This document shows, in pieces, positions 4,770 to 47,464 of a stretch of 50,189 nt of DNA. Positions within the stretch are counted from its first letter, which is position 1. Each line of letters starts with the position of its first letter. The translations under genes and the position numbers were made by a program. The notes under the pieces are model-generated. The model saw only the letters and a list, made by a program, of their open reading frames with translations. It did not search any database and was not told where the DNA came from. The stretch covers positions 1 through 50,189 of the forward strand of contig JBBISH010000035.1 of the NCBI GenBank assembly GCA_037441385.1, written 5' to 3'. The DNA is from Myxococcales bacterium. Lineage in GTDB: Bacteria > Myxococcota_A > UBA9042.

Positions 4770-4963
4770 TGCCCACGCCAGCCATTTCGCGCCTGTGCAG
4801 TTTCGCGGGGCCGTTCTGCAACCGGCGAGAATCAGAGGGGGCCCCTGGTCTTGGCCCGAGAAGATGCGCGGCCTTCCGACTCGATTGGAGTGGATCCGGT
4901 AGGATACGAACTCCGGTTCGGACCCGAAGAATTGCCCAAGTTTTCGGGCCGATTCGAACGGAT
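4770..4963 (-). repeat. Dispersed intergenic repeat, copy 3 (inverted, with an extra ~65-bp unit)
   Basis: CGTTCTGCAACCGGCGAGAATCAG at 4812-4835 is the reverse complement of the core in copies 1 and 2. Confidence 0.7.
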
Positions 4964-4968
4964 TCCGT

Positions 4969-8386: not shown

Positions 8387-20647
<12,261 letters not shown>

Positions 20648-21208
20648 CATAATCCTCTCGACGACGTGCATGCGGTCGCGGCGCGCCCCCGATTGCGTTG
20701 GTGCGGCGAGCGCCCGGTATGTACATCGGCGGCCGGCGGGCCTAGCGATGCGAAACGGAACCGTGTCGACCATCTCCGCGCTCCTGGGTCGGACTCGAGG
20801 GTGGGCCCCGTTGCCGGGGCTCGAGTCAGGGCTCGGGGATCACGATCGTCGCAGGGGATCGCGAACGACGGCAGGCACTCCCCTTTCGAGCGGCCATCCG
20901 GGTAGCAACCGCGCGGTTTTGCTTTGGAACTCCCGCGGCGGCCGGCGCGCGTCCACCGAGGGGGCGATGGTCGGGCGAAGACCGGAGTCCAAGCAAAACT
21001 TGGCGCAACTGCTACATTTTTGACCACCCCGCTGGGTGAACTGGCGGATCAGACCAGTTGGAACACCGTTGCCGACCGCAAAGGACGGTTCGGGCACTCC
21101 ATGTTGCACGGTAACAAAGCAAGGCAGGGAAGGCAAGCACTGTATGAAGTTCCGCGATGGGCAACTGCTCGGAGCCAATCATGCGACCCGCGAACTGCCA
21201 CGGAAGCG

Positions 21209-24704: not shown

Positions 24705-25643
24705 CTACGAGGCCGCCGGAACGATCGCCGCCGGCTTGCGCAACAGCGACTCCAAAGCGATCAGGATCACGCCCACCGTGATGCCGATGTCGGCGACGTT
24801 GTACACCGGCCAGCCGACCACGCGGCCATCGACCAGGATGTAGTTGTAGATGAAGTCGATCACCACGGTGTAGTTGGCCCGATCGACCAAGTTGCCCACC
24901 GCGCCAGCCAAGATGGCGGCCAGCGACCACGCCGACAGGGCCGAGAACAGGACCCCGCGCGCCAGCCACCAGATCATCACCAACGACGCCGTGCTGGAAA
25001 CGGCGACGAACAGGCCCCAGCGGAACAGGGGGGGCGCGCTCTCCAAGAAACTGAAGGCGGCACCCTTGTTTTCGGCATAGACGATGTCGCCGTGCAGCGG
25101 CCCGCTCAGGATCGGCAAGGCCCGGTCGAGCAAGGCGTAGGCGCGGCCGCCGGCAAAACTGGCGTCCGGGTCCAAGCGATGCGCGGTCACGACGTAGCTG
25201 TGCTTGTCCAGGACGTCCTGCATGGCCGCCTCGCTGGTACGCCACGCATCGCCCAAGACGGCGCCCAGAGGCTTGCCGACGTGCTCGGCGGTCAGGCGGA
25301 GCCGGCGCGGCGTTGGCATGCGGAGCCCATCGGTGACGACGATCTCGCGCCCCAAGTCCGTCTGGGCCACCGGCTGATCGGCCTTGAGCGGCTGTTTCTC
25401 CAGCCGCACCACTGCACCGGTGGCCGCCTCGCCGCGAATCGCCTCTTCGCCACCCCCGCGCGCGGCCAGGGCCAGCAACGGCGTGGGGCCATCGGCGGCT
25501 GTGACCACGATCGGGTGGATCGGCGTCGCCAGGTTGACCGTGACCATGTGCTTGGTGAGGAGGTCGGCCGCCAAAATAGCGATGGCAAAAGCGAAATACA
25601 TCCACCGCGGGTGGCTTGGAGGGCGAGCAGGACCAAGCATCAT
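24705..25643 (-). CDS. lspA: Lipoprotein signal peptidase II with large insertion
   Basis: 'ADLLTK', 'ENKGAAFS', 'GAVGNLVDR', 'VIDFI', 'WPVYNVADIGITVG'; GGAG RBS before ATG 25643. Confidence 0.93.
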   Translation of the reverse strand: MMLGPARPPSHPRWMYFAFAIAILAADLLTKHMVTVNLATPIHPIVVTAADGPTPLLALAARGGGEEAIRGEAATGAVVRLEKQPLKADQPVAQTDLGREIVVTDGLRMPTPRRLRLTAEHVGKPLGAVLGDAWRTSEAAMQDVLDKHSYVVTAHRLDPDASFAGGRAYALLDRALPILSGPLHGDIVYAENKGAAFSFLESAPPLFRWGLFVAVSSTASLVMIWWLARGVLFSALSAWSLAAILAGAVGNLVDRANYTVVIDFIYNYILVDGRVVGWPVYNVADIGITVGVILIALESLLRKPAAIVPAAS

Positions 25644-25801
25644 GGCAACTCCCGGTGGCAACGTGCCCCGAAGGGGCGAAAAGGGTACGGAAGAGCGACT
25701 GGAAATTCAACGACCGCGCCAAGCACTTGGCCCCGCGACTTGATCTTCTGACGGCACACTTCTAGGGTAGCACGGCGCCATTGCTGCGCCGCGAGCGCCC
25801 C

Positions 25802-26884
25802 GTGACCGCACCCGATCCGAAAACTCCCAGGGCACGCGCGACCTCCTCTGCTGCGCGCAGCCCGGCTCTTGGGGTCGCCGATGCCGCCGGGCGGGCGACG
25901 CTCGGCGAAAGCGACGACGCACGGCCGCAAACTGGCCGCTGCCGCATCAACACCGCAAGCCCGTGTGTTCATCCCTGGCCCACGCTAATTTGCCCCGTCT
26001 GCGGCCCGCTCCGCGACGCGAGCGCCAGCGCCCCCCTGCAAGCCGGTACGAGCCAGGTGCGCGGCGACGCTGAGGCGGTGCTGACGGCCATCCGCGCCGG
26101 TCTGGCAGCCGGCCACCGGCACTTCGACTTGCTGGGCGGCGAGTTGCTGCTTCGCCCCGAAGCGCTGGACCTGCTGACCCAGGCGCGCCGAGAGGGCGCC
26201 CAAGGACTGGCGGTCTGGACCGCCGGAGCGCTGCTGGCCCGCCCCGAAGCGGCCCTGCGGATCCGCCAGGCCGGCGCGACCCAGGTGGTGGTTGGACTTT
26301 TTGGCGATTCGCCCGCGGCACACGACTATGTGGCCGGCAACGAAGGCCATTTCCAAAGGGTGCTCGCGGGCTTGCGGGCCGCTCGCGCCGCCAAACTGGG
26401 AGTCTGGGTTGCAGCGCCCCTGCTGCGCCCCACATTCCGCGGGCTGCCGGGGCTGGTGCAAAAGACCTTGCCCGCTGGAGTCGCTGGCGTACACCTGTGG
26501 GCGCCGCCGGGACCCGACCGCAGCAGTCAGCCCTTGCTGGCGCCGCTGCCCCTGATGGCCCCCTGGGTGCAGGCGGCCGTGAAGATCTTGGCCACCGCCA
26601 AGCGACCATGGCGCGTCGACGGCCTGCCGGCCTGCCTCATGGGCGAGTGGGCGCGCCTGCAGCCCGAGTGGCCACAGTGGTCAGCTGCCACGCTGCCGCC
26701 GGCCAACCCGGCCGACGGGGAGCAATCTCCCCAAGAGCCCAACGAATTCTCGCCGCGGTGCGACGAGTGTACCTGGCGCAGCGGGTGTCCCGGCTTGCCA
26801 GCCCCGCGAGCGCGCAGCCACGGTTGGCTGGGTTTGCAGCCAAGGACCGATGCGCCCAAACCAGCCCAGCAAGAATTGTCCTAG
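25802..26884 (+). CDS. Divergent HxsC-like radical SAM-fold protein with non-canonical Cys motif
   Basis: 'LLGGELLLRPE', 'GDSPAAHDYVAGNEGHFQRVLAGL', 'VDGLPAC', 'CDECTWRSGCPG'; C-x8-C-x2-C in place of CxxxCxxC. Start uncertain. Confidence 0.7.
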   Translation: MTAPDPKTPRARATSSAARSPALGVADAAGRATLGESDDARPQTGRCRINTASPCVHPWPTLICPVCGPLRDASASAPLQAGTSQVRGDAEAVLTAIRAGLAAGHRHFDLLGGELLLRPEALDLLTQARREGAQGLAVWTAGALLARPEAALRIRQAGATQVVVGLFGDSPAAHDYVAGNEGHFQRVLAGLRAARAAKLGVWVAAPLLRPTFRGLPGLVQKTLPAGVAGVHLWAPPGPDRSSQPLLAPLPLMAPWVQAAVKILATAKRPWRVDGLPACLMGEWARLQPEWPQWSAATLPPANPADGEQSPQEPNEFSPRCDECTWRSGCPGLPAPRARSHGWLGLQPRTDAPKPAQQELS

Positions 26885-27007
26885 TGGTTTCAACCGAATC
26901 GTGTGCCGGCCTTGACGCAGCGAGGGCCGGTCTGCGCAAACTGGAGAGTGCACTGACGCGGCATACCGCTTGGGTGCGGCCGATGGTCGAGGGGCACTGG
27001 GCAGGCA

Positions 27008-29008
27008 ATGACAGACGATCGCGTGACAATTAGCGACCTTGACGTCGACAAGCTGGTCCGCGACGGCCTGCTGAACCGCGACGAGGCCGAGGCCCTGCGC
27101 GCCAGCCATCAGGCCGAGACGGGCACCGTGCGCATGGAGGCTTTGCCGTCCACGGCCGGCAACGACTCGGGCGAAAACAAGGACTTTGTCAAAGAGCAGG
27201 CCGCCCGCCACCAACGCCACTGGGTGCGGGTGACGCGCTTGTGCAACCAGCGCTGCACCTTCTGCCTGGATTCGATGAATCAAGACGGGACCATGATCGA
27301 CGTCGAGTCGCTCAAGGCCTACATCCTGCTGGGCCGGCGCATGGGCCGCGAGCGGTTGATCCTGTCGGGCGGCGAGGCCAGTGTTCACCCCAATTTCATC
27401 GAGCTCATCCGCTACGGTCGCCAGGTCGGCTACGACTGGATCCAGACCGTGACCAACGGGATGATGTTCAGCTACAAGAAGTTCGCCAACGCCGCCGCCG
27501 AGGCGGGCCTGAACGAGGCCACGGTCTCGATGCACGGCCACACGGCGCACCTGCACGACAAGCTGACCGGCACGCCGCTCGCTTTTGTCACGGGGATCAA
27601 GGGCATCCAGAACCTGCAAGCCACCGGCAAGGTCGTAGTCAACATCGACGTGGTGATCAACAAGCAGAACTACAAGTTCTTGCCCGAGATCATCGAGTAC
27701 TACTACAACATGGGCATTCGCGAGTTCGACCTGCTGCACATCGTGCCGTTCGGCCGCGGCTTTGATGAGCACCGCCACTCGCTGTTCTTTGATCTGAACG
27801 ACGCCGTGCCGTATTTCCGCAAGGCGTTTGCCTGGGCGGACAAGCCGGGCATGTTCATCTGGACCAATCGCTTGCCGGTTACGTACTTGGAAGGCTCCGA
27901 GCGGCTCATCCAAGAACCCCACAAGCTGACGAGCGAATTCGACGGCGGCCGCCACAACTTCGAGGGCTATCTGCGCCGCGGCCTGAAGCCCGACTGCCAC
28001 GGCGAGCGCTGCGACTACTGCTTCTTGGACGGGCCGTGCCGTCAGACGCTGTTTCCCTATCGCGAGCAGTTGATGGCCCACGCATTCCCGATCGTCCGCC
28101 TGGACAGCCATCAGGTCTGGGCGGGAACGCCAGCGCGCGAGCGATTCATGGCCCAACACCCGGCGTGGCTGCAACTAACGGCCCGCACGGCCGAAGATGC
28201 CGCGGCGGCGCTGACGAATCTGCCCTTTGACAGCGCCAAGTTCTCTGTGGAATTGGACGCGGGCAGCGAGACTCAGGCGCTGGCGCAAGTGCCCGGCGTG
28301 CAGCGCGTGGTGGTCAAGACGGTGGCCGACGCGGCGCGGGCCCTGGTGGGCGATCAGGCGCTGCCGGCGCCGATCGAGGTGGAGGTCGCGGTCGACAAGA
28401 CCTTGGCGGCGTGGCTGCTGGCGCGGCCCTCGACCTGCAAGTCGTGGGGATCGCGTTTGATCGTCGCGCTGCCCAACCACGAATACTTGAGCGAGTCGCA
28501 GGCGGCCGATCCGGAGCCCGAGACGCTGCGCAAGCTGGCGCGACTGGGGGTCCGCATCAAGAACCTGCCCGAGTGCGCGGTGGGGCCTGCGGCGATGCCT
28601 GGCGATCACAGCGTGCTGGACGCCAAGCTGCTGGACGGCGCCGGCGATCTGCACCTGGATCGCTACGTGCACCACTACATCACCCGCGAGTACTACGCCA
28701 AGAGCGTGCGCTGTGGTCTGTGCAGCCGCTTTGATCAGTGCCAGGGCATCCACATCAACTACCTGCGCAACCACGGGTTCGCCCAGATGACGCCGCTGGA
28801 CGAGCAGGGGCAACCGCGCGCGGATGCTCAGGATTTTGACCAGCTGGCCGATCGATTGAAGTTCGCCAACGCCGGGCGCAGCCGCCGCGACCAGAGCCGC
28901 ATTCTGGGTCTGCATCGGCCCGAGCGGCAGGCGGTGGATGAAGTGGTGCGCACGGTCGTCGACGTTGGGTCCACGGGCGAGGCGAGACACCCCGGCGAGG
29001 TGGGGTAG
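27008..29008 (+). CDS. Radical SAM protein (HxsC-like) with second degenerate C-terminal module
   Basis: CNQRCTFC, 'LSGGEA', 'TVTNG', 'SMHGHTAHLHDKLT'; Cys clusters CDYCFLDGPC and CGLCSRFDQCQG. Confidence 0.9.
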   Translation: MTDDRVTISDLDVDKLVRDGLLNRDEAEALRASHQAETGTVRMEALPSTAGNDSGENKDFVKEQAARHQRHWVRVTRLCNQRCTFCLDSMNQDGTMIDVESLKAYILLGRRMGRERLILSGGEASVHPNFIELIRYGRQVGYDWIQTVTNGMMFSYKKFANAAAEAGLNEATVSMHGHTAHLHDKLTGTPLAFVTGIKGIQNLQATGKVVVNIDVVINKQNYKFLPEIIEYYYNMGIREFDLLHIVPFGRGFDEHRHSLFFDLNDAVPYFRKAFAWADKPGMFIWTNRLPVTYLEGSERLIQEPHKLTSEFDGGRHNFEGYLRRGLKPDCHGERCDYCFLDGPCRQTLFPYREQLMAHAFPIVRLDSHQVWAGTPARERFMAQHPAWLQLTARTAEDAAAALTNLPFDSAKFSVELDAGSETQALAQVPGVQRVVVKTVADAARALVGDQALPAPIEVEVAVDKTLAAWLLARPSTCKSWGSRLIVALPNHEYLSESQAADPEPETLRKLARLGVRIKNLPECAVGPAAMPGDHSVLDAKLLDGAGDLHLDRYVHHYITREYYAKSVRCGLCSRFDQCQGIHINYLRNHGFAQMTPLDEQGQPRADAQDFDQLADRLKFANAGRSRRDQSRILGLHRPERQAVDEVVRTVVDVGSTGEARHPGEVG

Positions 29009-29011
29009 CAA

Positions 29012-30247
29012 GTGGCGAACATCGGCTACATCCAAATGGTGCGCCACTGCAACCAGAATTGCGGCTTTTGCAGCAATCCGGAGACGCCGTTTTTCTACGA
29101 CTTCGATCAGGTCCGCACCATCGTCGACGACTTTGTGGCTCGCGACTACTTTGGCGTGATCCTGACAGGCGGCGAACCGACCCTGTCGCCGATCCTGACA
29201 GAGTCGATCCGCTACGCCCGCGAAAAGGGCCTGCATGTGCGCATGATCACCAACGGCCAGAAGATGGCCGATGGCGCGTACGTCAAAGCCTTGGCCGAAG
29301 CGGGCTTGCAGCACGTGCACATCAGCATCCACAGCTGCAAGCACCGGCTGGAAGACTTCTTGACCGGCACACCCGGCTCGCTCGCGTGGGCCGAGCAGGC
29401 GCTGCACCACCTGGCCGAGACTGACATCACCGTGAACATCAACACGGTGATCAACCGCTACAATTGCGACCACCTGCACGAGACGGTCGAGTGGTTCATC
29501 CAGAACTTCCCGTTCGTGCGGCACTTTGTCTGGAACAACCTGGACCCGTCGATTGGCCGGGCGACCAGCAACCAGTACTTTACGGCGCGGATGCAGGATC
29601 TAGAGGTGTCGCTGGCCAAGGCGATGCGCCGACTGCACGAGACCGGGCGGAGCTTCCGGGTCGAGCGCGTGCCGCTTTGCTACATGACCGAGTTCGCCCA
29701 CTGCTCGACCGAGACCCGCAAGATCGTCAAGAGCGAAGAGCGCATCGTGCACTTCTTGGACAACAAGGGCACGGTGCGCCAGACCGAGTGGGGCCACCTG
29801 TACGCCGACGTGTGCGAGCAGTGCACCCTGCGCTCGATCTGCGGCGGGCTGTTCGATCGCGGCGACGCCTACGATCCGGCCGAGCTGTCGCCGCTTTTTG
29901 TCGATCCGCGGCCGATCATCGCCAAGATCGCCCTGGACGAGCAGAGCGACCCGGCGTGGCGTCTGCAGAAATTCAAGAATCTTGCAACGCTACCCGCGGC
30001 CCACCAGGGCAAGCAGGGCAGCTATCGCGCTCCGAGCCCCAGCGCCCCCAGCGGCGAGCGGCTGGTGGAGCCGACGACCGACCCCAAGCGCCGCCAAGAT
30101 CCCACGGCGCGCGATTGGCAACCCGAAGGCTGGCACCCGGCCGACGACGAAGTGGATGCCGAAATGGCGCCGCTGCAGCAGGACCCCCCGCCTGCCCAGG
30201 CGCGGCCGCGACCGGTTTCGGTTGCTGAGCCGCGAGGCACAAGGTAG
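29012..30247 (+). CDS. Radical SAM protein (HxsC-like) with low-complexity C-terminal tail
   Basis: CNQNCGFC, 'LTGGEPT', 'ITNG', 'VERVPLC', CEQCTLRSICGG; starts 3 nt after the upstream stop. Confidence 0.9.
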   Translation: MANIGYIQMVRHCNQNCGFCSNPETPFFYDFDQVRTIVDDFVARDYFGVILTGGEPTLSPILTESIRYAREKGLHVRMITNGQKMADGAYVKALAEAGLQHVHISIHSCKHRLEDFLTGTPGSLAWAEQALHHLAETDITVNINTVINRYNCDHLHETVEWFIQNFPFVRHFVWNNLDPSIGRATSNQYFTARMQDLEVSLAKAMRRLHETGRSFRVERVPLCYMTEFAHCSTETRKIVKSEERIVHFLDNKGTVRQTEWGHLYADVCEQCTLRSICGGLFDRGDAYDPAELSPLFVDPRPIIAKIALDEQSDPAWRLQKFKNLATLPAAHQGKQGSYRAPSPSAPSGERLVEPTTDPKRRQDPTARDWQPEGWHPADDEVDAEMAPLQQDPPPAQARPRPVSVAEPRGTR

Positions 30248-30323
30248 AAAGGAAGGCCGCCGCCCCCCACGGCAGCCGCGACCCGCAGCGGGCTCGACTG
30301 ACGAGCCCAGGGAACATGCAGAA

Positions 30324-30770
30324 ATGGCACAACATTCCGTAGAGTCCGTGGACCCCAAGGCCCACACCATCACGCTGGCGCTCGACCTGCAGCTGTACCC
30401 GTTCGACGTGGTCTACGGCGCAGCCTACGTCTTTATCGACCGCTGCTACGTGCTGCTCGACAAGACCGCCGGCCGCTGCCTGATCCACCTGCGCGGCAAA
30501 ACCGAGTTGAGTGAGAAGGAGCTTCTGGACCTGTCGGGCGAGTTTGGCAACGAGCTGTTGAGCCAGGCGCTGCGCCGCAAGATCGTCAAGCAAAACCAGA
30601 AAATCATTGAAGAAATCACCACCCAGGCCATCGCCGGGGCGGCGGGCGGGACTCTGCCCACCGACTTCTTGGATTCCAGCGACGACGGCATGGACTTCTT
30701 GGACGATCCGCTGGGCATCGCCGTGCCGTGGGAAGACAAGTTCAAGAAGAAATCGGCCGAGCAGCCCTAA
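30324..30770 (+). CDS. hxsD: His-Xaa-Ser system protein HxsD-like
   Basis: 'LDLQLYPFDVVYGAAYVFIDRCYVLLD' and 'GEFGNELLSQALR' resemble the HxsD F.NEL....LR motif; located in an operon with hxsB. ATG 30324. Confidence 0.75.
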   Translation: MAQHSVESVDPKAHTITLALDLQLYPFDVVYGAAYVFIDRCYVLLDKTAGRCLIHLRGKTELSEKELLDLSGEFGNELLSQALRRKIVKQNQKIIEEITTQAIAGAAGGTLPTDFLDSSDDGMDFLDDPLGIAVPWEDKFKKKSAEQP

Positions 30771-30788
30771 CCGCAGCGAGAGGTTCCC

Positions 30789-31025
30789 ATGAGCCAGGCC
30801 CAGACGGCTGTGGTGCGGCTGCACCGTGGCCTTTACATGCAGCAGGCCATCAAGGAAGCGGCGAATACCTTTGCGGATTTTGCCAGCTTCAAGATCGTGC
30901 GCGACGGCGAGCACTACGCGGTGACCGTGTCGGACATCGACGCCGAGGTCGAGGGCGACGTGGTGGCCGAGTTCTGCAACTTTGCCCTGCACAACACCAT
31001 GCAACGCAAGAAGAAAAGGATATAG
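30789..31025 (+). CDS. Short HxsD-like protein (78 aa)
   Basis: GAGG RBS; 'LHRGLYMQQAIKEAANTF..EFCNFAL' parallels the LY..AA..F..EF.N..L pattern of the upstream HxsD. Confidence 0.7.
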   Translation: MSQAQTAVVRLHRGLYMQQAIKEAANTFADFASFKIVRDGEHYAVTVSDIDAEVEGDVVAEFCNFALHNTMQRKKKRI

Positions 31026-31028
31026 CGC

Positions 31029-32543
31029 ATGCAGCTGAGCGACGTGATTTCGCTGGGCCGGGTCAAGGCCGACTTTGCGATGCCCTTCAACCACCGCGCC
31101 ATCGGCGGGCGCTACGTGGTCAGCAATGACCTGGGCGATCACCTGTTTTTGACGCCCGACGAGCTGCGCCGCCTCTACGAAGGTGACACTGTACCGGGCG
31201 ACGGCCTGTACGAGCGCCTGGTGCAAGCCAATTTGGTGGCGGCCAAGGTCGACGTCAAAGCCCAAGCCGAGCGGTGGAAGCGCAAGCACCAATACCTGTT
31301 CTACGGCCCCACGCTGCACGCATTTGTGCTCACGCACCGCTGCAATCACGGCTGCCAGTACTGCCACAGCTCGATCGTGGGCATGGACCGCACCGACACG
31401 GACATGAGCATCGAGACCGCGGAGCGCGCGGTCGACCTGGTGTTCCAGACCACCAGCCCAGGCGTAAACATCGAGTTCCAGGGCGGCGAGCCGCTGGCCA
31501 ACTGGGACGTGCTGCAGCACATCGTGGAGTACGCACGGCAGAAAAACGCGTTGGCGGGCAAGACGTTGTCCTTCTCGCTGGTGACCAACCTCAGCCTGAT
31601 GGACGACGACAAGCTGGACTATCTGATCGACCGCAAGGTGCAGCTGTGCACGTCGCTGGACGGCCCCGAAGACCTGCACAACAAGATCCGCATCTACAAG
31701 GACGGCAATGCCCACGCCTCGGTGGTGGGCTGGATGAGGAAAATCAACCAGCGCTACAAAGACATGGGGCTCGACCCCAACCTGTACCGCGTGGAAGCGC
31801 TGCCCACGGTGACGCGGCCGGGCCTGACCCGCTGGAAAGACATCGTGGACCAGTACGTGGAAGTGGGCTGCAAGGCGATCTTCCTCCGCAAGCTGGATCC
31901 GTTTGGCTTTGCGGCGCGCTCGTACAAGACGCTTGGCTACACCATGGACGAGTTCCTGGATTTCTACGCCAACGCGGCCGAATACATCCTGGACTTGAAC
32001 AAGAAGGGCGTGCAGGTGATGGAGCGCCACGCGGCGCTGATGCTGGCCAAGATCCTGACGGATCAAGAGCCAAACTACCTGGATTTGCGGACCCCCGGCG
32101 GCGCCTGCATCGGCCAGATTGGCTACGCGCCCGACGGTAGCATCTACTCGTCGGACGAGGGCCGCTTTGTGGCGTCGATGGGCGACGAGATGTTCAAGAT
32201 CGGCACGGTGGCGGACACCTACCACCAGTTGATCACCAACGCCCACACCCGCGCGATGGTGATGGCCGGCCTGAACGACACCCAGCCCGACTGCGTGACG
32301 TGCGTGTACAAGCCGTGGTGCGGCCAGCAGGTGGAGTACAACTACAAGACCCAGGGCAGCCTGCAGGGTCGGATGCGCGACTCGGTGTGGTGCAAGAAAC
32401 ACAAGCGCGTGTTCGACTGGCTGATGGCGCGTCTGGAGCGGGCCGACGCCGAAGAGATGAAGATCTTCGAGCGCTGGACGTCGACCCGCGTGCTCGACCA
32501 CTACCTGCAGGATCGGTCGGCGCTGGATTCGCCGTCATTGTAG
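31029..32543 (+). CDS. hxsB: His-Xaa-Ser system radical SAM maturase HxsB
   Basis: N-terminal 'YVVSNDLGDHLFL'; CNHGCQYC; 'IEFQGGEPL', 'TSLDGP..LHN', 'YLDLRTP', 'GSIYSSDEGR'; SPASM-like CVTCVYKPWCG..C. Confidence 0.88.
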   Translation: MQLSDVISLGRVKADFAMPFNHRAIGGRYVVSNDLGDHLFLTPDELRRLYEGDTVPGDGLYERLVQANLVAAKVDVKAQAERWKRKHQYLFYGPTLHAFVLTHRCNHGCQYCHSSIVGMDRTDTDMSIETAERAVDLVFQTTSPGVNIEFQGGEPLANWDVLQHIVEYARQKNALAGKTLSFSLVTNLSLMDDDKLDYLIDRKVQLCTSLDGPEDLHNKIRIYKDGNAHASVVGWMRKINQRYKDMGLDPNLYRVEALPTVTRPGLTRWKDIVDQYVEVGCKAIFLRKLDPFGFAARSYKTLGYTMDEFLDFYANAAEYILDLNKKGVQVMERHAALMLAKILTDQEPNYLDLRTPGGACIGQIGYAPDGSIYSSDEGRFVASMGDEMFKIGTVADTYHQLITNAHTRAMVMAGLNDTQPDCVTCVYKPWCGQQVEYNYKTQGSLQGRMRDSVWCKKHKRVFDWLMARLERADAEEMKIFERWTSTRVLDHYLQDRSALDSPSL

Positions 32544-32604
32544 CCTGCCACATAGGCACCGCCGCGCCGACCTGCTAGACTGAGGCCGCTTGCAGGAGGC
32601 CGGC

Positions 32605-33336
32605 ATGTGGCACAGAGGCGACAACTTCACGCGACGGCGCCACTTGGCGCTGTTCCTGGCGGCAACCGCTTTGGCGGCCGCACCGGCATGGGCGGATCCC
32701 GATCCTGCACCCATCCCTGATTCCGCGGCCAGCAGCCCGGCCAAAGGCGATGCGTCCGAGGCGCCCCCGCTGGCGGCACCGCAGCCGCGCCCGCCGGCTC
32801 CCGTTGACCCCGGCGCCACGCCGCAGCCGCGGCCAAAGCCAGGTGAACAGGTCAATGTCCACGGCATCGGCGTGGCCGGCAGCTTTGCCACGGGCACCGG
32901 TCTGACCTACCGCCGCTACTTTGGCAATACCTCGATCCAGGCCAGTTGCCTGGCGATCATCACCGACCGCGGCAACGAGGCCCTGGCCTTCGTCGGCGCG
33001 TCGCTGGTGCAGTACGTGCTGATCTGGCACACACCCAACTCGCGGGGGCTCATGCCGTCGACCACCGCCCTGCGCTTGACGACCGGCGCGCACTACTACC
33101 TGCGCAAAACCACCAGCACCGAGTGGAGCTTCTCGCAGGGCATCGGCACGCCCACCACGACCACGACCCGCGAGTCATCCGTGAACATCGGCGCCGGCAT
33201 CGGGGCCGAGTTCGGCGGCATCGTCGCCCCTGGGTTCTCGCTTTCGCTGGATCTGCTGCTGGTGGCGGCCTTCGATCAACAGGGCCTGTCGTACATCTTG
33301 CCGCTGCCGCAATCGGCACTGGTCTACAGTTGGTAG
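32605..33336 (+). CDS. Secreted protein, predicted small outer-membrane beta-barrel (paralog 1)
   Basis: AGGAGG RBS; signal peptide ending 'AWA'; Pro-rich linker; alternating amphipathic strands; C-terminal 'VYSW'. Confidence 0.7.
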   Translation: MWHRGDNFTRRRHLALFLAATALAAAPAWADPDPAPIPDSAASSPAKGDASEAPPLAAPQPRPPAPVDPGATPQPRPKPGEQVNVHGIGVAGSFATGTGLTYRRYFGNTSIQASCLAIITDRGNEALAFVGASLVQYVLIWHTPNSRGLMPSTTALRLTTGAHYYLRKTTSTEWSFSQGIGTPTTTTTRESSVNIGAGIGAEFGGIVAPGFSLSLDLLLVAAFDQQGLSYILPLPQSALVYSW

Positions 33337-33345
33337 GAGGCGGAG

Positions 33346-33984
33346 ATGAACAGGCAAGCGATTCTTCGGGTAATCCTGCTGACGGCGGTGCTGGCGCTCA
33401 CGCTGGGCAGCTCGGCGCAGCCGGTGCAGGCGCAGACCGCCAAGGTGCTGGTGGGGCACGAGAGCCAGGTGCAGAACAACACGCACGGTCTGGGCGTGGC
33501 CGGCGACTTCAAGGGCGGTCTGACCGGCTTTGCCTACCGCCACTACTTTGGCAACCACAGCCTGCAGGTCGACCTGCTGCCACTGTATGCCGATAGAGGC
33601 AACTACCTGGCGATGTACTTTGGCGCGCAGTACATCAACTATGCGCTGGTCTGGTCGGGGGCCCGCCGCGGCGCGCTGCTGCCCACAACCACCGCCCTTC
33701 GTTTGACCTTGGCCGGCTCGGTGCACGCCGAACGCGACCAGCAAACCGCGATCTCGGTCGACACCACCAACTGCCAGACCCAGCAGTGCAAGGACATCAC
33801 CAACGCCAAGGCGGCGGTGTCGGTCATGTACGCGGTCGCGGGCGGTTTTGGTTTCGAATTCGGCGCCGTACAGCGTTCGGGCTTCTCGGTGGCGGTCGAC
33901 TTGATGATGACCGTGCTGTGGGATCGCGTCGGCTTCTACGGCGCCTACCCGCTACCGTACGCATCGCTCATGTACTCGTGGTAA
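33346..33984 (+). CDS. Secreted protein, predicted small outer-membrane beta-barrel (paralog 2)
   Basis: AGGAGG RBS; signal peptide; shares 'HG.GVAG.F..G.T/F.YR.YFGN.S.Q', 'P.TTALRLT', 'G.G.EFG', 'PLP..L.YSW' with the upstream gene. Confidence 0.72.
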   Translation: MNRQAILRVILLTAVLALTLGSSAQPVQAQTAKVLVGHESQVQNNTHGLGVAGDFKGGLTGFAYRHYFGNHSLQVDLLPLYADRGNYLAMYFGAQYINYALVWSGARRGALLPTTTALRLTLAGSVHAERDQQTAISVDTTNCQTQQCKDITNAKAAVSVMYAVAGGFGFEFGAVQRSGFSVAVDLMMTVLWDRVGFYGAYPLPYASLMYSW

Positions 33985-41615: not shown

Positions 41616-43904
41616 TCAGTCGCCGAACTTCTGGCGTGCCTCGTCGTGCCACTGCTCGGGCCAGTAGTAGAAGCCCTCGCAAGCAATTGAATACAGGCAC
41701 GTTTTGCACTTTTCTTCGTGCCGGCGCCGCGACTGCAGGTAGTCGAACAGGTTCACGTCGTCCATCGACACGAACAGCATGTGCCGCTGCAGCTTGCCGA
41801 TGTCGCTCAGCCCGTACTCCTCGTACCCGGGCATGAAGCACATGGGCAGGTTGATGACCTGAAAGCGAATGTCCTTGCCGTAGCGATCGATCAGCGCCAT
41901 AGCCTGGCGGGCCGCCTCGGCCGGGTCGGGCTGGCACTCGGCGCTGGCGCGGCCAAACGGAGTCAGGAACTGAATGTTGCAGTTCTTGACGCCCATATCC
42001 ATCAGCAAGTCGCCGTATTCCATCAAGAACGGCGTATTGATCGTGGTCAACGTGACGTTGACGCCAAAATCGAGGCCGAGTTTTTCGCACAAGGGTCGCG
42101 CGTTGCGGATGCCCGCCGTGGTTTGCACAAAAGCGCCGCGCACTTGCACGTTGCGGTCGTGGACGTCGGGGTTGGGGCCGTGGAGCGAGACCAACAAGCT
42201 GGTGATCCCCGAGCGCACGATTTTTTCAGCGTTTTTCGGGTTAGACAGCATCCGGCCGTTGGTGGTCAGGTTCACGGCGCGGTAGCCCAGCTGACGGGCC
42301 GAGCGGATGAGGCGGAACAACTCGGGATTGGTGGTCGGCTCGCCACCGTCGAAGTCGCAGAGATCAAAGCCCTGTCTGCGCCGTTCGGCCAAAAAGGCCA
42401 CCTGCTCGTCGGCCTGACCGTGCCAGTCCGAACGGTTGCCTGTCGCACAAAATACGCAATGATTGTTGCAGATGTAGGTCGTATTGACGATGACCTTGCG
42501 CGGCGCCCAAGCCTCGAGCTTGGCCTCGAAGACTTTCTTGGCCAGGGCCAAATCGTGCGGCGTCCAATCGGATCCGCGCAACAGCGGTTTGCCCTGAAAA
42601 AGCGGTCCGATGTCGCGGTCTTCGCGATTGACCCACTGGCCCTGCTCGGTCACGGTCGCGTGCAGGCGCGTGCCCAGGATCGGGGTGGCAAATTGCAGCA
42701 GCGGCCGGGCCCCCCAGCGCTCGAACAAATCCCAGGCCGTGATCAAGGTTTGCAGGATCTCGGCTCGCGTCTCAGCCGGCTGACCGATCATCCAGTGCAC
42801 GACCAGGGGCAGGCCGTGTCGCTGGCACCACTCGGCGACCCGCTCGCTGGCTTGCAGGTCAAAGCGCTTGCCAATCAGATCGTTGGCCACGCGCTCGACC
42901 GCCGACTCTGCCGAGATCGACAGCACCGGCACGCGGCCAACCATCCGCGCCACCTGGGCCTCGCTCAGGCGGTCCGCGCGCATGCCGTTGGGAAAATCCA
43001 GTTTCAAATCGTACTGTTCGGCCACATCCAACAGCGCATCAAAGTGCCCCGCATGGACATTGACGAGTTCGTCCAACACGACCCAGCGGCAGACGTTCAG
43101 CTCTTCGCGGCACACGCGGGCGTGCTCGGCCAGCAAGTCCTTGCCCATCCGGCGGTAATTCTTGCCGGGCAGTCCCTCGCGCGACCACGGGTTCGACGTG
43201 CAGAAGTTGCAGGCAAAGCTGCAGCCGCGCGAGGTCTTGACCGGCAACAGGCCGGCGCTCAAGGCAAAGATCTCTTGCTTGTGGTTCGCCTGGCCACAGC
43301 GCTCCAAGAACCGCTGATAGGCCGGCAAGTCGATCAGGTCGTAGGCTGGCAGCGGCAGCCCGTCCAAATCGTCGCCAATCGGAGCACCCAACACCAGGCG
43401 CTGTTTGGGCTTTTCTCCAGCCACCAGGCGCGTGACCACCTCTGGCAGCGCTGCATCGGCCTCGAAGCGCACGCCATAATCGGCACCGACCTCATCGAGC
43501 GCCGTGGTCTCCCACGCGATCGTGTGCATTCCCCCCACGTCGCAGTCGGCCAGCACGATCGGCGCCGGCCAACGCTCGCGCAACGACTTGCAAAGCTTGA
43601 CTAATTCCGCCGTGGCTGCGGTGGCGCGCAGCCAGGGGCTGTAGCCGATCACGGTGACGTCGGGCGGCGCAGCCGGCAGCTTGGCGAGCAGGCCCGACAG
43701 CGGCACCCCCAGCCGCAGCCACGGCGGCGATTCGAGCAGAAGCCCAGAATTGGGCTGACAAAACGCGTCGAGCACCTGCACGTGGTGGCCAGCTCTGCCC
43801 AGCGCCGCGGCTGCTTGCCACACGCCCAGGTTGGTGAAGTAGGGATAGTCGATGAAGTCGCTGGCGAGCAACAACGGCGGCTGAATCAGCAGAACACGCG
43901 CCAC
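41616..43904 (-). CDS. Fusion: B12-binding radical SAM enzyme plus second HxsC-like radical SAM domain
   Basis: N-terminal 'RVLLIQPP..NLG..AAAL..GHHVQVLDA'; 'LDGLPLPAYDL', 'TSRGCSFACNFC'; second motif CNNHCVFC with 'DGGEPT', 'TTNG', 'NLPMC', CKTCLYSIACEG. GTG 43904 after a G-rich RBS. Confidence 0.9.
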   Translation of the reverse strand: MARVLLIQPPLLLASDFIDYPYFTNLGVWQAAAALGRAGHHVQVLDAFCQPNSGLLLESPPWLRLGVPLSGLLAKLPAAPPDVTVIGYSPWLRATAATAELVKLCKSLRERWPAPIVLADCDVGGMHTIAWETTALDEVGADYGVRFEADAALPEVVTRLVAGEKPKQRLVLGAPIGDDLDGLPLPAYDLIDLPAYQRFLERCGQANHKQEIFALSAGLLPVKTSRGCSFACNFCTSNPWSREGLPGKNYRRMGKDLLAEHARVCREELNVCRWVVLDELVNVHAGHFDALLDVAEQYDLKLDFPNGMRADRLSEAQVARMVGRVPVLSISAESAVERVANDLIGKRFDLQASERVAEWCQRHGLPLVVHWMIGQPAETRAEILQTLITAWDLFERWGARPLLQFATPILGTRLHATVTEQGQWVNREDRDIGPLFQGKPLLRGSDWTPHDLALAKKVFEAKLEAWAPRKVIVNTTYICNNHCVFCATGNRSDWHGQADEQVAFLAERRRQGFDLCDFDGGEPTTNPELFRLIRSARQLGYRAVNLTTNGRMLSNPKNAEKIVRSGITSLLVSLHGPNPDVHDRNVQVRGAFVQTTAGIRNARPLCEKLGLDFGVNVTLTTINTPFLMEYGDLLMDMGVKNCNIQFLTPFGRASAECQPDPAEAARQAMALIDRYGKDIRFQVINLPMCFMPGYEEYGLSDIGKLQRHMLFVSMDDVNLFDYLQSRRRHEEKCKTCLYSIACEGFYYWPEQWHDEARQKFGD

Positions 43905-44097
43905 GAGTCCCCCGGCCGGCTGGTGCGTCGAATGGAACCCGCGCGTGTCGGGTGCGACGTCGCCTGTGCCAGTATCCTGGGGGCCGCGAGCGGTGGCAAG
44001 GTACAGACGGCAAGGGTTGCCCGCTGTTGCAAAATCGTCCGCACTGGCCGGCTTGCAACCCCTGCTGGCCGCGGCTACTTTGGGGCCAGGAGGGCGT

Positions 44098-47000
44098 GTG
44101 TATCCCAATGCCTACCCACATCGGCCGACCGCGCCCAAGGCCTTGCCCCAACTGCTGATCGGCGTGGTCGCGCTGCTGGCGCTGTTGACGGCTGCCCCAG
44201 TGCACGCCTGGAGCGCGCGCAAAGTGGCGCCCGCCGGATCGAAACGCCGGCCTGCAACCCACGCGGCTCTGCCGCCAGCGGCCGAGTTGACGCTGGGCGA
44301 GCGCTGCCAGGCTGCCACCGGGCGATCGCCCCCCAATGTCGCGGAAGTGCTCGCGGTACTGCGGGCGGCCATGGCGGCGCGCGAGACGGCGTGCGGGCGC
44401 GATCTGGTGGCTCGGCTGCTTTTGGCCAAGGCCTCTCCGGCCCAATTGATCGAGGCCGGACAACTACTTGCGACCGATCCGTTGGGTCTGCCCGTGTGGA
44501 AACTGGCGTGGCAAAGCGGGCGGCGGCGGCCCCTGTGGGTGCGCCAAACCGGCGAGGGCTATGCCGACGCACTGCTGGCCCAAGGGGATGCCGAGGCTGC
44601 CCGAGTGGTGGTCGAGGCCGCTTTGGCGCAGGCGCCGGCCGGCACGCGCCGCGGTCTGTACGAGCGCGCAGCGGCGATCGCACGGCTGCAGGGCAAGGCG
44701 AGCGACGTGGCCGACGAGCTGAGCGTGGCCAGCGATCCAGACGCACAGGTGGTCGCCGCGCAGCTGATGGTCGAGCTGGGCCGCGACGAGGACGCCACGG
44801 CCACGTTGCGCAAAGCGTGGCAGCGGTATCCCGGGCACCGGGCGCTGCAGGCGGCGTTCATGCAGCTGCTGCAGCGGCTGGGTGTGCGCGACGAATTGCG
44901 ACAGCTGGTGGATCAGGTGGTGCGCCTGGCGCCGGCCGACCCGATGCCGTTGCTGACCGTACTGGATGCCCATATCGCTGCCCGCGACGCCCGCGCAGCG
45001 CGGGCCTTGATCGACGAGATGGCGCGGCGGTGGCCACAGCACGACCAAATGCTCGAGTCGCTGATCGATCGCGAGCAACGGCTTGGCGATGACCCGGCGC
45101 GCATCCGCACGTTGTACGAGCAGTTGCTGGTCGCCAGCCACCAGCAGCCGCAGTACTTGTTGGCCTACGCCGAGTGGCTGCTCAGCCACGGCGACAGCCG
45201 CGCGGCGCAGGCGGTGCTGGTGCGCCGGCCTGGCAAGGGCGAGCCAGTCCTGGAAGGGCTGATTCGTCAAGCACAACTGCTGATCGGCCACCGCATGGTG
45301 GTCGAGTCGCGCGAGCCGATCGAGCGGGCGGCCGCGCTGGCGCCCACCGATCCGCGGGTGTTGCGGCTGCAGGCCCAACAGGCCGAGCTGGAAAAGAATT
45401 TCCCCAAAGCCGAAGCGATCTGGTTCGGTCTGACCAAGCTGGGCGACGCGGCGAACCCTGCCGAGCGAAGGCGCGCGGCCGATGGGCGCCAGGCGCTGGT
45501 GGGGCTGTGGCGGCGGATCGACGTGTTGGCCCAGCGCACAGTCCAACTCGTGGCCGAGCTGCAAAACCAAGAGCCAACCCTTGGAAAAGCCCTGCTTTGG
45601 CTCGACGCAAGTGCGCAGCTGGACGAAGGCGCAAGCGTGCCAGGCTCGACTCTGGCGACGCTGCTGCCGCGCCTGCGCAGCAAGCTGGGTCCTGATCCCG
45701 AACTGCTGGCCGGACTTGTCAGCCTGGAACTGAGCCGCGGCCACGACGACGAAGTGGTCGCCTATTTGATGGACTTGCGCAGCGCCGACCCGGATGCCGC
45801 AGAACCCCTGTTGCAGCAAGCCCTGGAACACTGTCTGGCGCGAGGCCGGCGCGATTTGGCGGCTCCGCTTGAAGAGGCGCTGGCCAGCCTGGGTCAATCC
45901 GCGGCCAGCTTGGTCAAGCTGGGCGACTTGCACCTGCGCTACGGCGATGTCGCAGGCGCGACCGCGCTGTTCAAGCGTGCGGCCCAGGCAGAGCGGGGCG
46001 ACACGCGGGCTACCGCGCGCTTGGCGGCGATGTTCCGCAAGGCGGGCGAGGTGGCCGAAGAAGAAGCGGCGCTCCGCGATATCGTGGTGCGAACCTCCGA
46101 TGCCGACGAGCTAGAGGGGGCCGGTCAGCGCTTGATCACCGTGGCACTGGCGCGCGGGTCCGTCGCCGAGTTGGTGCGCTGGCTGGACGCGGTGGCGCCG
46201 CAGCACCCGCGGCGCGAGATCTTGGCCCGCTTGCGATCGAGCGCGCACGACGCGTGGCTGCGCACGGCCAGCCTGGACCAGGCCTTGGGGCATCCCGACC
46301 GCCTGCCACCTGCGGGCGACTTGGCCCAAGCGTTGGCGAGCGGTGACTTGGCCCTGCAGGTGCGGGCCCTGCGCGAGCTGGCCCTGCAACACCGTATGAT
46401 TCCAGTCAGTCTGGCCAAGAGCTTGCTGCAGAGCCCCAACCTGGTCTTGCGCCGCGACACCGCGTTGGCCCTGGGGGCAGCGGGCGTGCCAGCGGCGGCC
46501 GAATTGCTCCGCGACGTGATGGCCGAAGGCAGTGACCGCGACGAAGACGTGGTGGCCGCCCAGTTGGCTGCCTTGGCCCATCTGCCGGCCGTGCCTGGGA
46601 TCGATGCCGCCGTTCTGCCGCTGGTGAACCGCGGCGACCCGCTGGTGGTGCAGCTGGCGCAGCTGGTTGCGGGCGCCAAAGGCGGTACGGCAGCCGCGCC
46701 GGCGCTCATGGTCGGTATCCAGACGCCGCGCCGAGACATGGGGGCCGCCGCTCTCATCGCCTTGGGGGCCCTGGTGGGGCGCAACCCAAGCGACCCGAGC
46801 TTGGCGTCGGCGCGGGCGCTGCTGCTGGACCGCGGCGAACGCCTGCAGTGGTCGGGCACCGAGATTCCCCGCAACCTTGCAACCATGTGGGGTTTGCGCG
46901 CCTCTGGCCTGCAGCGGGCCGGGGTCTTGCTGCTGCGGACCGCCGTGGAGTCCGAGAGCTTGCTGCTGCGTCGGGCGGCCGTGGTCTTGCTGGCGCGGCG

Positions 47001-47280
47001 CAGCGCCCCTGAAATTCGGCTGCAATTGCCCGAAATCGGCGATGCGCAAGCGATGGCCAACCTCCGCTTTTCGGCGCGGCGCGACAATCTGGCCGACATA
47101 CTGGCAGGTGGTGAGGCCGAAGTGGTTGCAGCGCTTGTCGAACTTGGCCCGCAGTTGCGGCCCCTGGTCGAACAGCGCGCAGCCAACGACCCAACCTGGC
47201 GTAGCCGTTGGTGCGCGACCTGGCCGGAGTTACCCGCGGGGCAGGCGGCATGGTCGGCGGTCTGCCCGTCGACACCGTAG
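44098..47280 (+). CDS. Secreted TPR/HEAT-repeat alpha-solenoid protein
   Basis: AGGAGG RBS, GTG 44098; signal peptide ending 'VHA'; TPR-like 'LVKLGDLHLRYGDVAGATALFKRAAQ'; HEAT-like 'LLQSPNLVLRRDTALALG'. Confidence 0.78.
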   Translation: MYPNAYPHRPTAPKALPQLLIGVVALLALLTAAPVHAWSARKVAPAGSKRRPATHAALPPAAELTLGERCQAATGRSPPNVAEVLAVLRAAMAARETACGRDLVARLLLAKASPAQLIEAGQLLATDPLGLPVWKLAWQSGRRRPLWVRQTGEGYADALLAQGDAEAARVVVEAALAQAPAGTRRGLYERAAAIARLQGKASDVADELSVASDPDAQVVAAQLMVELGRDEDATATLRKAWQRYPGHRALQAAFMQLLQRLGVRDELRQLVDQVVRLAPADPMPLLTVLDAHIAARDARAARALIDEMARRWPQHDQMLESLIDREQRLGDDPARIRTLYEQLLVASHQQPQYLLAYAEWLLSHGDSRAAQAVLVRRPGKGEPVLEGLIRQAQLLIGHRMVVESREPIERAAALAPTDPRVLRLQAQQAELEKNFPKAEAIWFGLTKLGDAANPAERRRAADGRQALVGLWRRIDVLAQRTVQLVAELQNQEPTLGKALLWLDASAQLDEGASVPGSTLATLLPRLRSKLGPDPELLAGLVSLELSRGHDDEVVAYLMDLRSADPDAAEPLLQQALEHCLARGRRDLAAPLEEALASLGQSAASLVKLGDLHLRYGDVAGATALFKRAAQAERGDTRATARLAAMFRKAGEVAEEEAALRDIVVRTSDADELEGAGQRLITVALARGSVAELVRWLDAVAPQHPRREILARLRSSAHDAWLRTASLDQALGHPDRLPPAGDLAQALASGDLALQVRALRELALQHRMIPVSLAKSLLQSPNLVLRRDTALALGAAGVPAAAELLRDVMAEGSDRDEDVVAAQLAALAHLPAVPGIDAAVLPLVNRGDPLVVQLAQLVAGAKGGTAAAPALMVGIQTPRRDMGAAALIALGALVGRNPSDPSLASARALLLDRGERLQWSGTEIPRNLATMWGLRASGLQRAGVLLLRTAVESESLLLRRAAVVLLARRSAPEIRLQLPEIGDAQAMANLRFSARRDNLADILAGGEAEVVAALVELGPQLRPLVEQRAANDPTWRSRWCATWPELPAGQAAWSAVCPSTP

Positions 47281-47464
47281 CGGTTTTTGCCCCCCAACCC
47301 TTTGGCAGTCTGGCCGCACGTTGGTATGCTAGGGGGATCAGGCTCGGCACCGCCGCAGTCGTGGCACCGAGTTGGTGGGCCAGTCCCACCTTGCCCTGCC
47401 CAAGGAGCCCCTCATGTACCAGTCCCCGTGGTCCGTCCAGGCGGAGTTCAGCACGGAAAAAACC

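Follow-up and report, generated by a model that had tools for sequence, protein, structure and literature searches.

What do radical S-adenosylmethionine (radical SAM) enzymes act on when no substrate gene accompanies them? The question is raised by a stretch of 50,189 nucleotides from a Myxococcales bacterium (assembly GCA_037441385.1, contig JBBISH010000035.1; 66% G+C; hereafter the window), in which eight genes at 25.8 to 34.0 kb, here named g1 to g8, resemble the maturation genes of a His-Xaa-Ser (HXS) system. This type of system is said to have been first predicted by Haft and Basu in 2011. An initial sequence-only reading had described the genes as co-oriented and had assigned them to a degenerate radical SAM protein, two HxsC-like radical SAM proteins, HxsD, an HxsD-like protein, HxsB and two paralogous beta-barrels, and our analysis bears it out: all eight lie on the forward strand, the G+C content at third codon positions (GC3) backs their frames, and the identities stand. 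We also confirmed that the window has no open reading frame (ORF) with HxS repeats, since its six-frame translation reaches at most three H.S motifs per 45 residues. Here we report that the segment from 25.8 to 32.5 kb is very probably the maturase operon of a dispersed, HxsA4-type His-Xaa-Ser system whose precursor gene is unlinked. Genomes, loci and families are cited by handles (G, L and f; the genome of the window is G000), and synteny counts given out of 29 refer to the related loci around g2 or, for the neighbours of the peptide gene, to the related loci around that gene.

One clear HxS-repeat peptide is encoded on another contig

All 221 contigs of the genome were scanned in six frames for clustered H.S motifs, and eight ORFs were listed, one with 15 overlapping matches and the other seven with four matches each. 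The former (G000:C47:39822-40139), on another contig, encodes a peptide of 104 residues, with a leader of 55 residues and the core HCS(HGS)15W. A GGGGAG Shine-Dalgarno sequence stands upstream of its ATG, the stop codon comes right after the tryptophan, and the leader, which is not hydrophobic, carries a conserved LPKLKK...DFLSPEEGAIS motif. The nine-base units that make up the repeats differ from one another by synonymous Gly and Ser codons, a sign of selection at the protein level that speaks against simple repetition of DNA. The peptide scored 91.6 bits on the NCBIfam HxsA4 model (NF038313, cut-off 55) and 6.7 bits on canonical HxsA; a genome search with the HxsA model (TIGR03979) missed it and gave four weak matches of 10.8 to 27.5 bits (contigs C17, C53, C8 and C3). 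It has neither a peptidoglycan-binding domain nor basic residues in the repeats. Its matches to Pfam "Collagen" and to an NCBIfam collagen-like adhesin were rejected as an effect of the three-residue periodicity of glycine.

The architecture of the peptide is well kept. Thirty peptide loci were read in the order to which the window belongs, 27 of them complete and unmasked, and 24 of these 27 have exactly 16 repeats followed by tryptophan, one having 19 and two 12. No radical SAM gene lies near the peptide gene, whose neighbours are an HD-domain gene, kept in 25/29 related loci, and a sigma-70-like (region 2) gene, kept in 24/29; the latter (L034:12523-13167, on G000:C47) is convergent to the peptide gene. 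When two metatranscriptome runs were searched, 0.14 to 0.16 of the sampled words were present, and three short RNA-library contigs cover only L034:11764-11969, that is, the 5' end of the peptide gene and its leader. DNA carry-over being possible, these contigs are at most a faint hint that the gene is transcribed in relatives.

The sequence-only reading had proposed a distant or non-HxS substrate. The distant gene was found, the precursor lying on another contig, whereas the idea of a non-HxS substrate had to be given up in view of one clear (HxS)16 peptide above the HxsA4 cut-off. Its own alternative, a precursor located elsewhere with every gene fitting an already described subtype, came true in part: an HxsA-type precursor does exist elsewhere, but the HxsC-like genes match no described subtype.

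HxsB and the peptide occur together and are linked in other lineages

We scored HxsB with the TIGR03978 cut-off and the peptide with a DNA pattern of six HxS repeats, both in 37 species-level genomes (14 genera) of the window's order and in an even set of 301 Myxococcota genomes. Within the order each was present in 36/37 genomes, the sole miss being 58% complete for HxsB and 61% complete for the pattern, and backward-read controls for the pattern gave mostly zero. Among the 301 genomes, 107 had both, six had HxsB only, 12 the pattern only and 176 neither (113 with HxsB and 119 with the pattern); after exclusion of the window's own family, f1, the counts were 83, 6, 12 and 176. Of the 12 genomes with the pattern alone, six or more carry other simple repeats (HRS, HPS, HPC, HRR). 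Families with a patchy distribution agree as well, with HxsB and the pattern found respectively in 8 and 7 of 23 genomes (f19), 6 and 7 of 10 (f28), 3 and 4 of 18 (f30) and 0 and 0 of 9 (f29). HxsB is present in all 24 sampled genomes of f1, in 32/34 from the other families of the class and in 57/243 sampled Myxococcota genomes outside it.

A scan for (HGS)6 in one genome per prokaryote species returned at least 120 stretches, and among the matches listed were Myxococcota, Binatia, Elusimicrobia, Omnitrophota, phyla of the candidate phyla radiation (CPR) and a few others. When the 120 listed loci and that of the window's genome were taken together, 102 had an ORF with at least six H[GAS]S repeats; in 84 the array stood at the very C-terminus, and related leader motifs recurred. 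When five genomes from other phyla that carry the peptide were tested, all had HxsB above its cut-off. Peptide gene and hxsB are immediate neighbours in a Saccharibacteria genome (G040) and in an Elusimicrobium (G038), and the peptide gene abuts hxsB in at least eight Myxococcota of other families (G044, G095, G179, G232, G260, G290, G304 and G318). In Saccharibacteria the order at locus L192 is HxsD (with the C-terminal tail DDPLGIAVPWEDK, of the type seen in g4), HxsD-like, HxsB and peptide; in Elusimicrobium the peptide stands between HxsB and another radical SAM gene, and in an Omnitrophota genome it closes a long run of radical SAM genes. This linkage suggests that the window's order has the same system and that its precursor gene has moved away.

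The repeat peptides of other lineages differ in detail. Those of CPR and Elusimicrobia (L077, L090, L093, L150 and others) have a hydrophobic segment resembling a membrane helix, often followed by ..AACS before the repeats, and many end in ..GGWC or ..Y, not in W; Myxococcota leaders do not have the hydrophobic segment. Inside a compact Hxs supercluster of genome G260 we also noticed a 58-residue ORF (L203:11158-11334, forward strand) with two CxxC pairs and no Pfam match, which ends in ..YKGSW and so resembles the ..HGSW end of the repeat peptides.

Could the cluster instead act on a non-HxS substrate, such as a protein or a cofactor precursor, the unlinked peptide being irrelevant or the property of another system? 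The window contains no precursor, g2 and g3 score below the HxsC and HxsC4 cut-offs and the genome encodes a second HxsB (see below), all of which would suit this idea. However, exactly one strong HxS-repeat gene exists in the genome, HxsB and the pattern coincide across the phylum, and elsewhere the peptide gene sits within clusters of HxsD, HxsD-like, HxsB and g2-like genes; we regard a non-HxS substrate as extremely unlikely.

The HxsC-like proteins of the operon

The intergenic gaps from g1 to g8 are, in order, 123, 3, 76, 18, 3, 46 and 9 nt. The first three genes encode HxsC-like proteins, and the C-terminal [LV]PxC..CxxCx5CxG tail noted earlier was confirmed in each of them and found again in a fusion protein described below. 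The product of g1 (25781..26884, +) is a degenerate, HxsC-like pseudo-radical SAM protein that scored 33.5 bits on Pfam Radical_SAM, 31.8 on HxsC and 21.8 on HxsC4. It has Cx8CxxC in place of CxxxCxxC, and all three of these cysteines are lost in 5/17 aligned orthologues (L011, L013, L018, L020 and L031), while that of L016 has kept the last one alone; in contrast, the LPAC..CxxCx5CxG tail is retained in 18/18 aligned rows. Conservation of g1 among relatives begins near residue 52 (about position 25934), and g1 is upstream of g2 in 26/29 related loci.

The 666-residue radical SAM enzyme encoded by g2 (27008..29008, +) has a CNQRCTFC motif, an LPEC..CxxCx5CxG tail and an additional invariant Cx4Cx2Cx5C motif at residues 330-344. 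Its scores, 77.7 bits on HxsC (cut-off 267.9) and 102 on HxsC4 (cut-off 500), are below both cut-offs. In the AlphaFold2 (AF2) model (mean predicted local distance difference test, pLDDT, 77.2) the core resembles BlsE, MoaA, SkfB and viperin, and an inserted alpha/beta domain is predicted at residues ~350-520, with pLDDT above 90, between the radical SAM core and the Cys-rich tail. A Foldseek search with the whole g2 model matched radical SAM cores only and nothing for the inserted domain, and an ESM Atlas look-up with residues 345-520 gave matches all below 0.9, all to hypothetical proteins. The gene is single copy in 36/37 genomes of the order.

The third protein, the 411-residue radical SAM enzyme of g3 (29012..30247, +), has the motif CNQNCGFC and the tail VPLC..CEQCTLRSICGG. 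With 106.7 bits on HxsC, against the cut-off of 267.9, and 75.6 on HxsC4, against 500, it is the closest to canonical HxsC among the window's proteins. A g3 orthologue is present in 22/29 related loci; of the other seven, L013, L020 and L031, in which HxsD comes after g2, and L027 lack it, and L017, L019 and L032 are cut off by a contig edge. Public records name the orthologues of g2 and g3 "radical SAM protein" and that of g5 "hypothetical protein".

HxsD, the HxsD-like protein and HxsB

The next three genes complete the operon. The 148-residue HxsD is encoded by g4 (30324..30770, +; true start 30324, an existing gene call of identical length being on record) and scored 57.7 bits on TIGR03976, above the cut-off of 50. 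The 78-residue HxsD-like protein of g5 (30789..31025, +) scored 68.6 bits on NF038315 (HxsD_rel; cut-off 41) and was aligned with 15 orthologues, Saccharibacteria and Omnitrophota among them. HxsB, a radical SAM/SPASM maturase encoded by g6 (31029..32543, +), reached 499.8 bits on TIGR03978 against a cut-off of 370, and NCBI gives the name HxsB to an orthologue 97% identical to it. A complex prediction from the HxsB and HxsD-like alignments scored 0.01, the mark being 0.32.

Beyond the 90 positions of the HxsD model, g4 carries a conserved acidic C-terminal tail, DDPLGIAVPWEDKF, whose motif is also present in Saccharibacteria, Omnitrophota, Elusimicrobia and other Myxococcota (for example L192, L193, L194, L199 and L203). 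Conservation over such a range, outside the modelled part of the protein, raises the alternative that this invariant tail of HxsD is itself the target of the enzymes. Yet the tail is equally conserved where an HxsA-type peptide shares the operon (L192, L193 and L194), so it is no replacement for HxsA; moreover, the genome has an HxsA4 gene, and a docking motif would explain the conserved tail equally well. We therefore hold it to be highly improbable that the HxsD tail is the target.

Two HxsB genes are present in about half of the order's genomes. The second one of the window's genome (G000:C57:3015-4583; 522 residues, 491 bits) is 49% identical to g6. It is followed by a gene for an RlmN/Cfr-like radical SAM protein (locus L198, G000:C57:1902-4583; 220 bits, cut-off 290), which we rejected as a part of the system, its position beside the second HxsB being found only in G000 and G028.

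A fusion of a B12-like and an HxsC-like radical SAM protein

A further gene of the window, 9 kb away on the reverse strand (41616..44108, -), had been proposed as a possible member of the system, and this proposal was upheld. The 830-residue ORF has CSFACNFC at residue 296, CNNHCVFC at residue 547 and the tail LPMC..CKTCLYSIACEG, and matches Pfam Radical_SAM twice. Residues 537-758 match HxsC4 best (117 bits; HxsC, 72.4), below the cut-offs, and by its sequence the C-terminal half is to be counted as a fourth HxsC-like domain of the system. The N-terminal half contains Radical_SAM and scored 29.5 bits on Pfam B12-binding, just under the cut-off of 32.1; the best NCBIfam match of the B12/radical SAM type was TIGR04072, with 64 bits against a cut-off of 360.

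Besides the HxsC4-like half, the distribution of the fusion and its neighbours in other families favour its membership. It was found in 73 of the 301 Myxococcota genomes, every one of which (73/73) is HxsB-positive, and in 0/188 HxsB-negative genomes. In the compact loci L199, L203 and L204, which come from other families, it adjoins a g2-like gene divergently and lies 4-25 kb from hxsB or the peptide gene. In five genomes (G058, G064, G069, G080 and G096) the two halves are separate genes.

Relatives align to the fusion only from residues 50-70 onward, so translation of the ORF probably begins at about residues 58-70. The long form overlaps by ~160 nt an ORF of 1111 residues encoding a TPR protein (43945-47280, +); given the later start, the overlap is likely an artefact of ORF calling.

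The beta-barrel pair is only loosely linked to the cluster

The last two genes of the row, g7 (32590..33336, +) and g8 (33346..33984, +), encode predicted secreted, eight-stranded outer-membrane beta-barrels. They are paralogues (34% identity) with shared motifs and signal peptides, the N-terminal hydrophobic segment being visible in the alignment, and both end in ..YSW. In the AF2 model of g8 (pLDDT 87.9) the best fold matches are eight-stranded outer-membrane barrels, with VIA-align Z scores of 12.9 for the OprF N-domain, 11.8 for NspA and 11.8 for OprH, and OmpA also among the matches; by this model g8 would have the marks of a small outer-membrane barrel, namely a signal peptide, about eight strands and an aromatic C-terminal residue. 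Neither protein matches a Pfam or NCBIfam family, and the likeness to barrels of the OmpA/OprF type is accordingly at the level of the fold only. Among 5.8 billion proteins, 43 homologues were found, all of them unnamed.

Are these barrels working parts of the system, serving as the outer-membrane exit or anchor of the mature peptide, or even as substrates? They share the strand of the operon at gaps of 46 and 9 nt, and the tandem pair is present in 35/37 genomes of the order, adjoining HxsB in 19 of the 35 and g2 in four more (G009, G010, G011 and G015), and it stands behind hxsB, where other lineages have the peptide gene. Nevertheless, 12 of the 35 genomes have the pair on a contig that carries no Hxs gene; its family profile was found in 23/301 Myxococcota genomes, all of family f1, and in 0/277 others, 89 of which are HxsB-positive, nor was the pair found in the compact loci. 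Where adjacency persists from a single ancestral gene order, its recurrence does not count as separate evidence. A role of g7 and g8 as working parts seems unlikely to us, and a pair that is confined to the order and only loosely linked makes for doubtful members of the system.

Genomic surroundings of the cluster

The cluster had been described as sitting among housekeeping genes, as is indeed the case, with cdsA, uppS, lgt and lspA on one side and aroE, ribF and aroA on the other. The earlier statement that the window has no protease needs correction, as lspA (24705-25661, -), encoding signal peptidase II, lies directly upstream and divergent; it looks like a housekeeping gene and is upstream of g1 in 19/29 related loci. 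In its product of 318 residues the Peptidase_A8 match is limited to residues 192-306, and about 150 extra residues follow the first membrane helix, a long form that is kept in relatives. Predicted promoters and terminators between 25400 and 34400 did not exceed those of shuffled sequences (no promoters, 0.9 expected; seven terminators, 6.3 expected). No known defence gene was seen beside the cluster among the window's genes, and PADLOC, with a library of 2023 that predates HXS, gave generic viperin-type radical SAM matches only. Elsewhere in the window a single ORF of 4150 residues (8390-20839, -; GC3 0.92) contains 28 putative metal-binding motifs of the MopE type (PF11617), and two further proteins with MopE motifs are encoded at 4903-8031 (with WD40 repeats) and 47333-50188.

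A proposed mechanism and role

What we observe are the gene identities, a conserved peptide with its family membership, the patterns of co-occurrence and the gene linkage seen elsewhere; chemical steps, subunit pairing and a biological role we infer from these by analogy with the studied system. In E. coli, maturation of HxsA requires HxsB, HxsC and HxsD together, HxsC and HxsD bind each other, and one HxS repeat carries a change of +8 Da (+C, -4H) (PMC13128918). By analogy, the leader would dock on HxsB, on the HxsD-type adaptors (HxsD and the HxsD-like protein) or on both, after which HxsB, g2, g3 and the HxsC-like half of the fusion would carry out radical chemistry on the sixteen His-Gly-Ser repeats in the cytoplasm. 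The product of g1, a catalytically degenerate paralogue, is probably a scaffold, and the B12-like half of the fusion probably methylates. Removal of the leader and export would be encoded elsewhere than in the window's operon.

Several points weigh against this picture. As far as sequence data go, peptide and enzymes are tied together by co-occurrence and by gene neighbourhood in other lineages, and genomes that are related do not count as separate samples. The second HxsB could be the enzyme that acts on the peptide. In G001 and in one genus (handle g5, not to be confused with the gene), HxsB and g2 are on separate contigs, and 2/29 loci have no HxsD, HxsD-like protein or HxsB within 9 kb of g2. 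As neither g2 nor g3 reaches the cut-off of HxsC or of HxsC4, the two enzymes may not share the chemistry of HxsC. A signal peptide is lacking from the precursor, and neither a protease nor an exporter for it was found in the window, of which not every small ORF was scanned, or beside the peptide gene. Finally, the preference for a constitutive role, set out below, derives solely from distribution and synteny, and at the phylum level HxsB is patchy (113/301).

What would the product do? The only studied relative acts against phages: according to Li et al. (Nat Commun 2026; PMC13128918), the canonical product acts in the periplasm and blocks phage DNA entry, and all HxS repeats of the effector are needed. 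The system of the window shares with it HxsB, HxsD and an effector with HxS repeats and has the phylum-level patchiness just mentioned, so that an exported array of His-rich repeats might form the same barrier to phage DNA. The peptide, however, lacks both a peptidoglycan-binding domain and a signal peptide, its repeats contain no basic residues, no known defence genes were seen adjacent, and HxsB and the peptide are each present in 36/37 genomes of the order, with HxsB in 32/34 from the other families of the class. Both loci also hold fixed positions among housekeeping genes (lspA in 19/29, the peptide neighbours in 24-25/29), whereas canonical HXS, by the figure given in the same source, is found in 27.2% of Klebsiella genomes. 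An anti-phage barrier of the canonical kind is thus a tentative possibility. Because the system is near-universal in the class and its two loci are fixed in position, we find a constitutive role of the modified His-rich peptide, in the envelope or in metal binding, somewhat more likely than phage defence.

A broader version of this proposal can be put forward, which taken as a whole is rather doubtful: the HXS machinery of this class would be a housekeeping pathway in which five radical SAM domains, one of them cobalamin-dependent, cross-link or methylate the (His-Gly-Ser)16 peptide into a metal-binding envelope peptide or cofactor that reaches the outer membrane via g7 and g8. If that were true, HXS-type chemistry would be an ancient peptide-remodelling pathway shared with CPR, Elusimicrobia and Omnitrophota, and the enterobacterial anti-phage system one late offshoot of it.

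The one HXS system that has been studied, an accessory cassette of four genes directed against phages, is said to be nearly confined to Pseudomonadota. Systems of HxsB with (His-Gly-Ser)n peptides are near-universal in a class of uncultured Myxococcota; in the window's lineage they are core, syntenic and dispersed and have several extra radical SAM domains, a B12-like one among them. They provide concrete candidate pairs of substrate and enzymes for the study of a chemistry seen in E. coli as a change of +8 Da. More generally, radical SAM clusters that seem to have no precursor may have unlinked ones, which a six-frame scan of the genome can find.

Comparison with known Hxs systems

The canonical system, hxsD-hxsB-hxsC-hxsA of E. 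coli and Klebsiella, is defined by the models TIGR03976 to TIGR03979. As with that system, the one reported here has an HxsB and an HxsD that pass the same curated models, HxsC-like radical SAM partners with a C-terminal Cys-rich tail and a ribosomal substrate with tandem His-Xaa-Ser repeats. Unlike the canonical substrate, the 104-residue peptide is unlinked and without a peptidoglycan-binding domain, and it barely registers on the HxsA model (6.7 bits). Of the system's four HxsC-like domains, one is degenerate and another is joined to a B12-like radical SAM protein, and none reaches the TIGR03977 cut-off of 267.9. An extra HxsD-like protein is present, and the order is C'-C-C-D-D'-B and not the contiguous D-B-C-A. 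The canonical system is accessory in Pseudomonadota, which hold 99.7% of such systems according to PMC13128918, whereas that of the window is core and syntenic in one Myxococcota order.

Models under the names HxsA2, HxsA3, HxsA4, HxsC4 and HxsD-like exist in NCBIfam, and with type 4 (NF038313, NF038315 and NF038332) the system agrees in part: the peptide passes HxsA4 and g5 passes HxsD_rel, but no protein of the window reaches the 500 bits of HxsC4, the best being the fusion with 117 and g2 with 102. Radical SAM proteins tested from L192 and L194 are also below this cut-off, the best with 138.7. Our full-text literature searches found no paper describing HxsA4, HxsD_rel or HxsC4, which appeared as annotation models only; on His-Xaa-Ser systems they gave the 2026 paper of Li et al. 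with its preprint, and a 2022 paper in the Journal of Biological Chemistry that mentions HxsB and HxsC in passing (PMC9062424), the remainder being unrelated. The sequence-only reading had called the cluster an undescribed system, which is too strong with HxsA4, HxsD_rel and HxsC4 already named in NCBIfam; its description of a distinct, larger Hxs variant holds, g2 and g3 failing the HxsC and HxsC4 cut-offs alike.

The operons of Saccharibacteria, Elusimicrobia and Omnitrophota (L192, L193 and L194) share with the window an HxsD with the same tail, the HxsD-like protein, HxsB, an (HGS)n peptide with a related leader motif and several HxsC-like radical SAM proteins. There everything is in one operon and the peptide has a hydrophobic segment resembling a membrane anchor before the repeats, whereas the genes of the window's system are spread across three or more loci and its peptide has a non-hydrophobic leader. 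The compact superclusters of other Myxococcota (L199, L200, L202, L203 and L204) share a g2-like radical SAM protein of 560-600 residues (34-45% identity), the fusion (40-43% identity), HxsD, HxsB and an (HGS)n peptide; they differ in having all of these within ~20 kb, with the peptide after hxsB, and barrel genes of the g7/g8 type were not found in the loci that were fetched. The Hxs families and the NCBIfam type-4 models were already known, and what is new here is an enlarged and dispersed Myxococcota variant of them.

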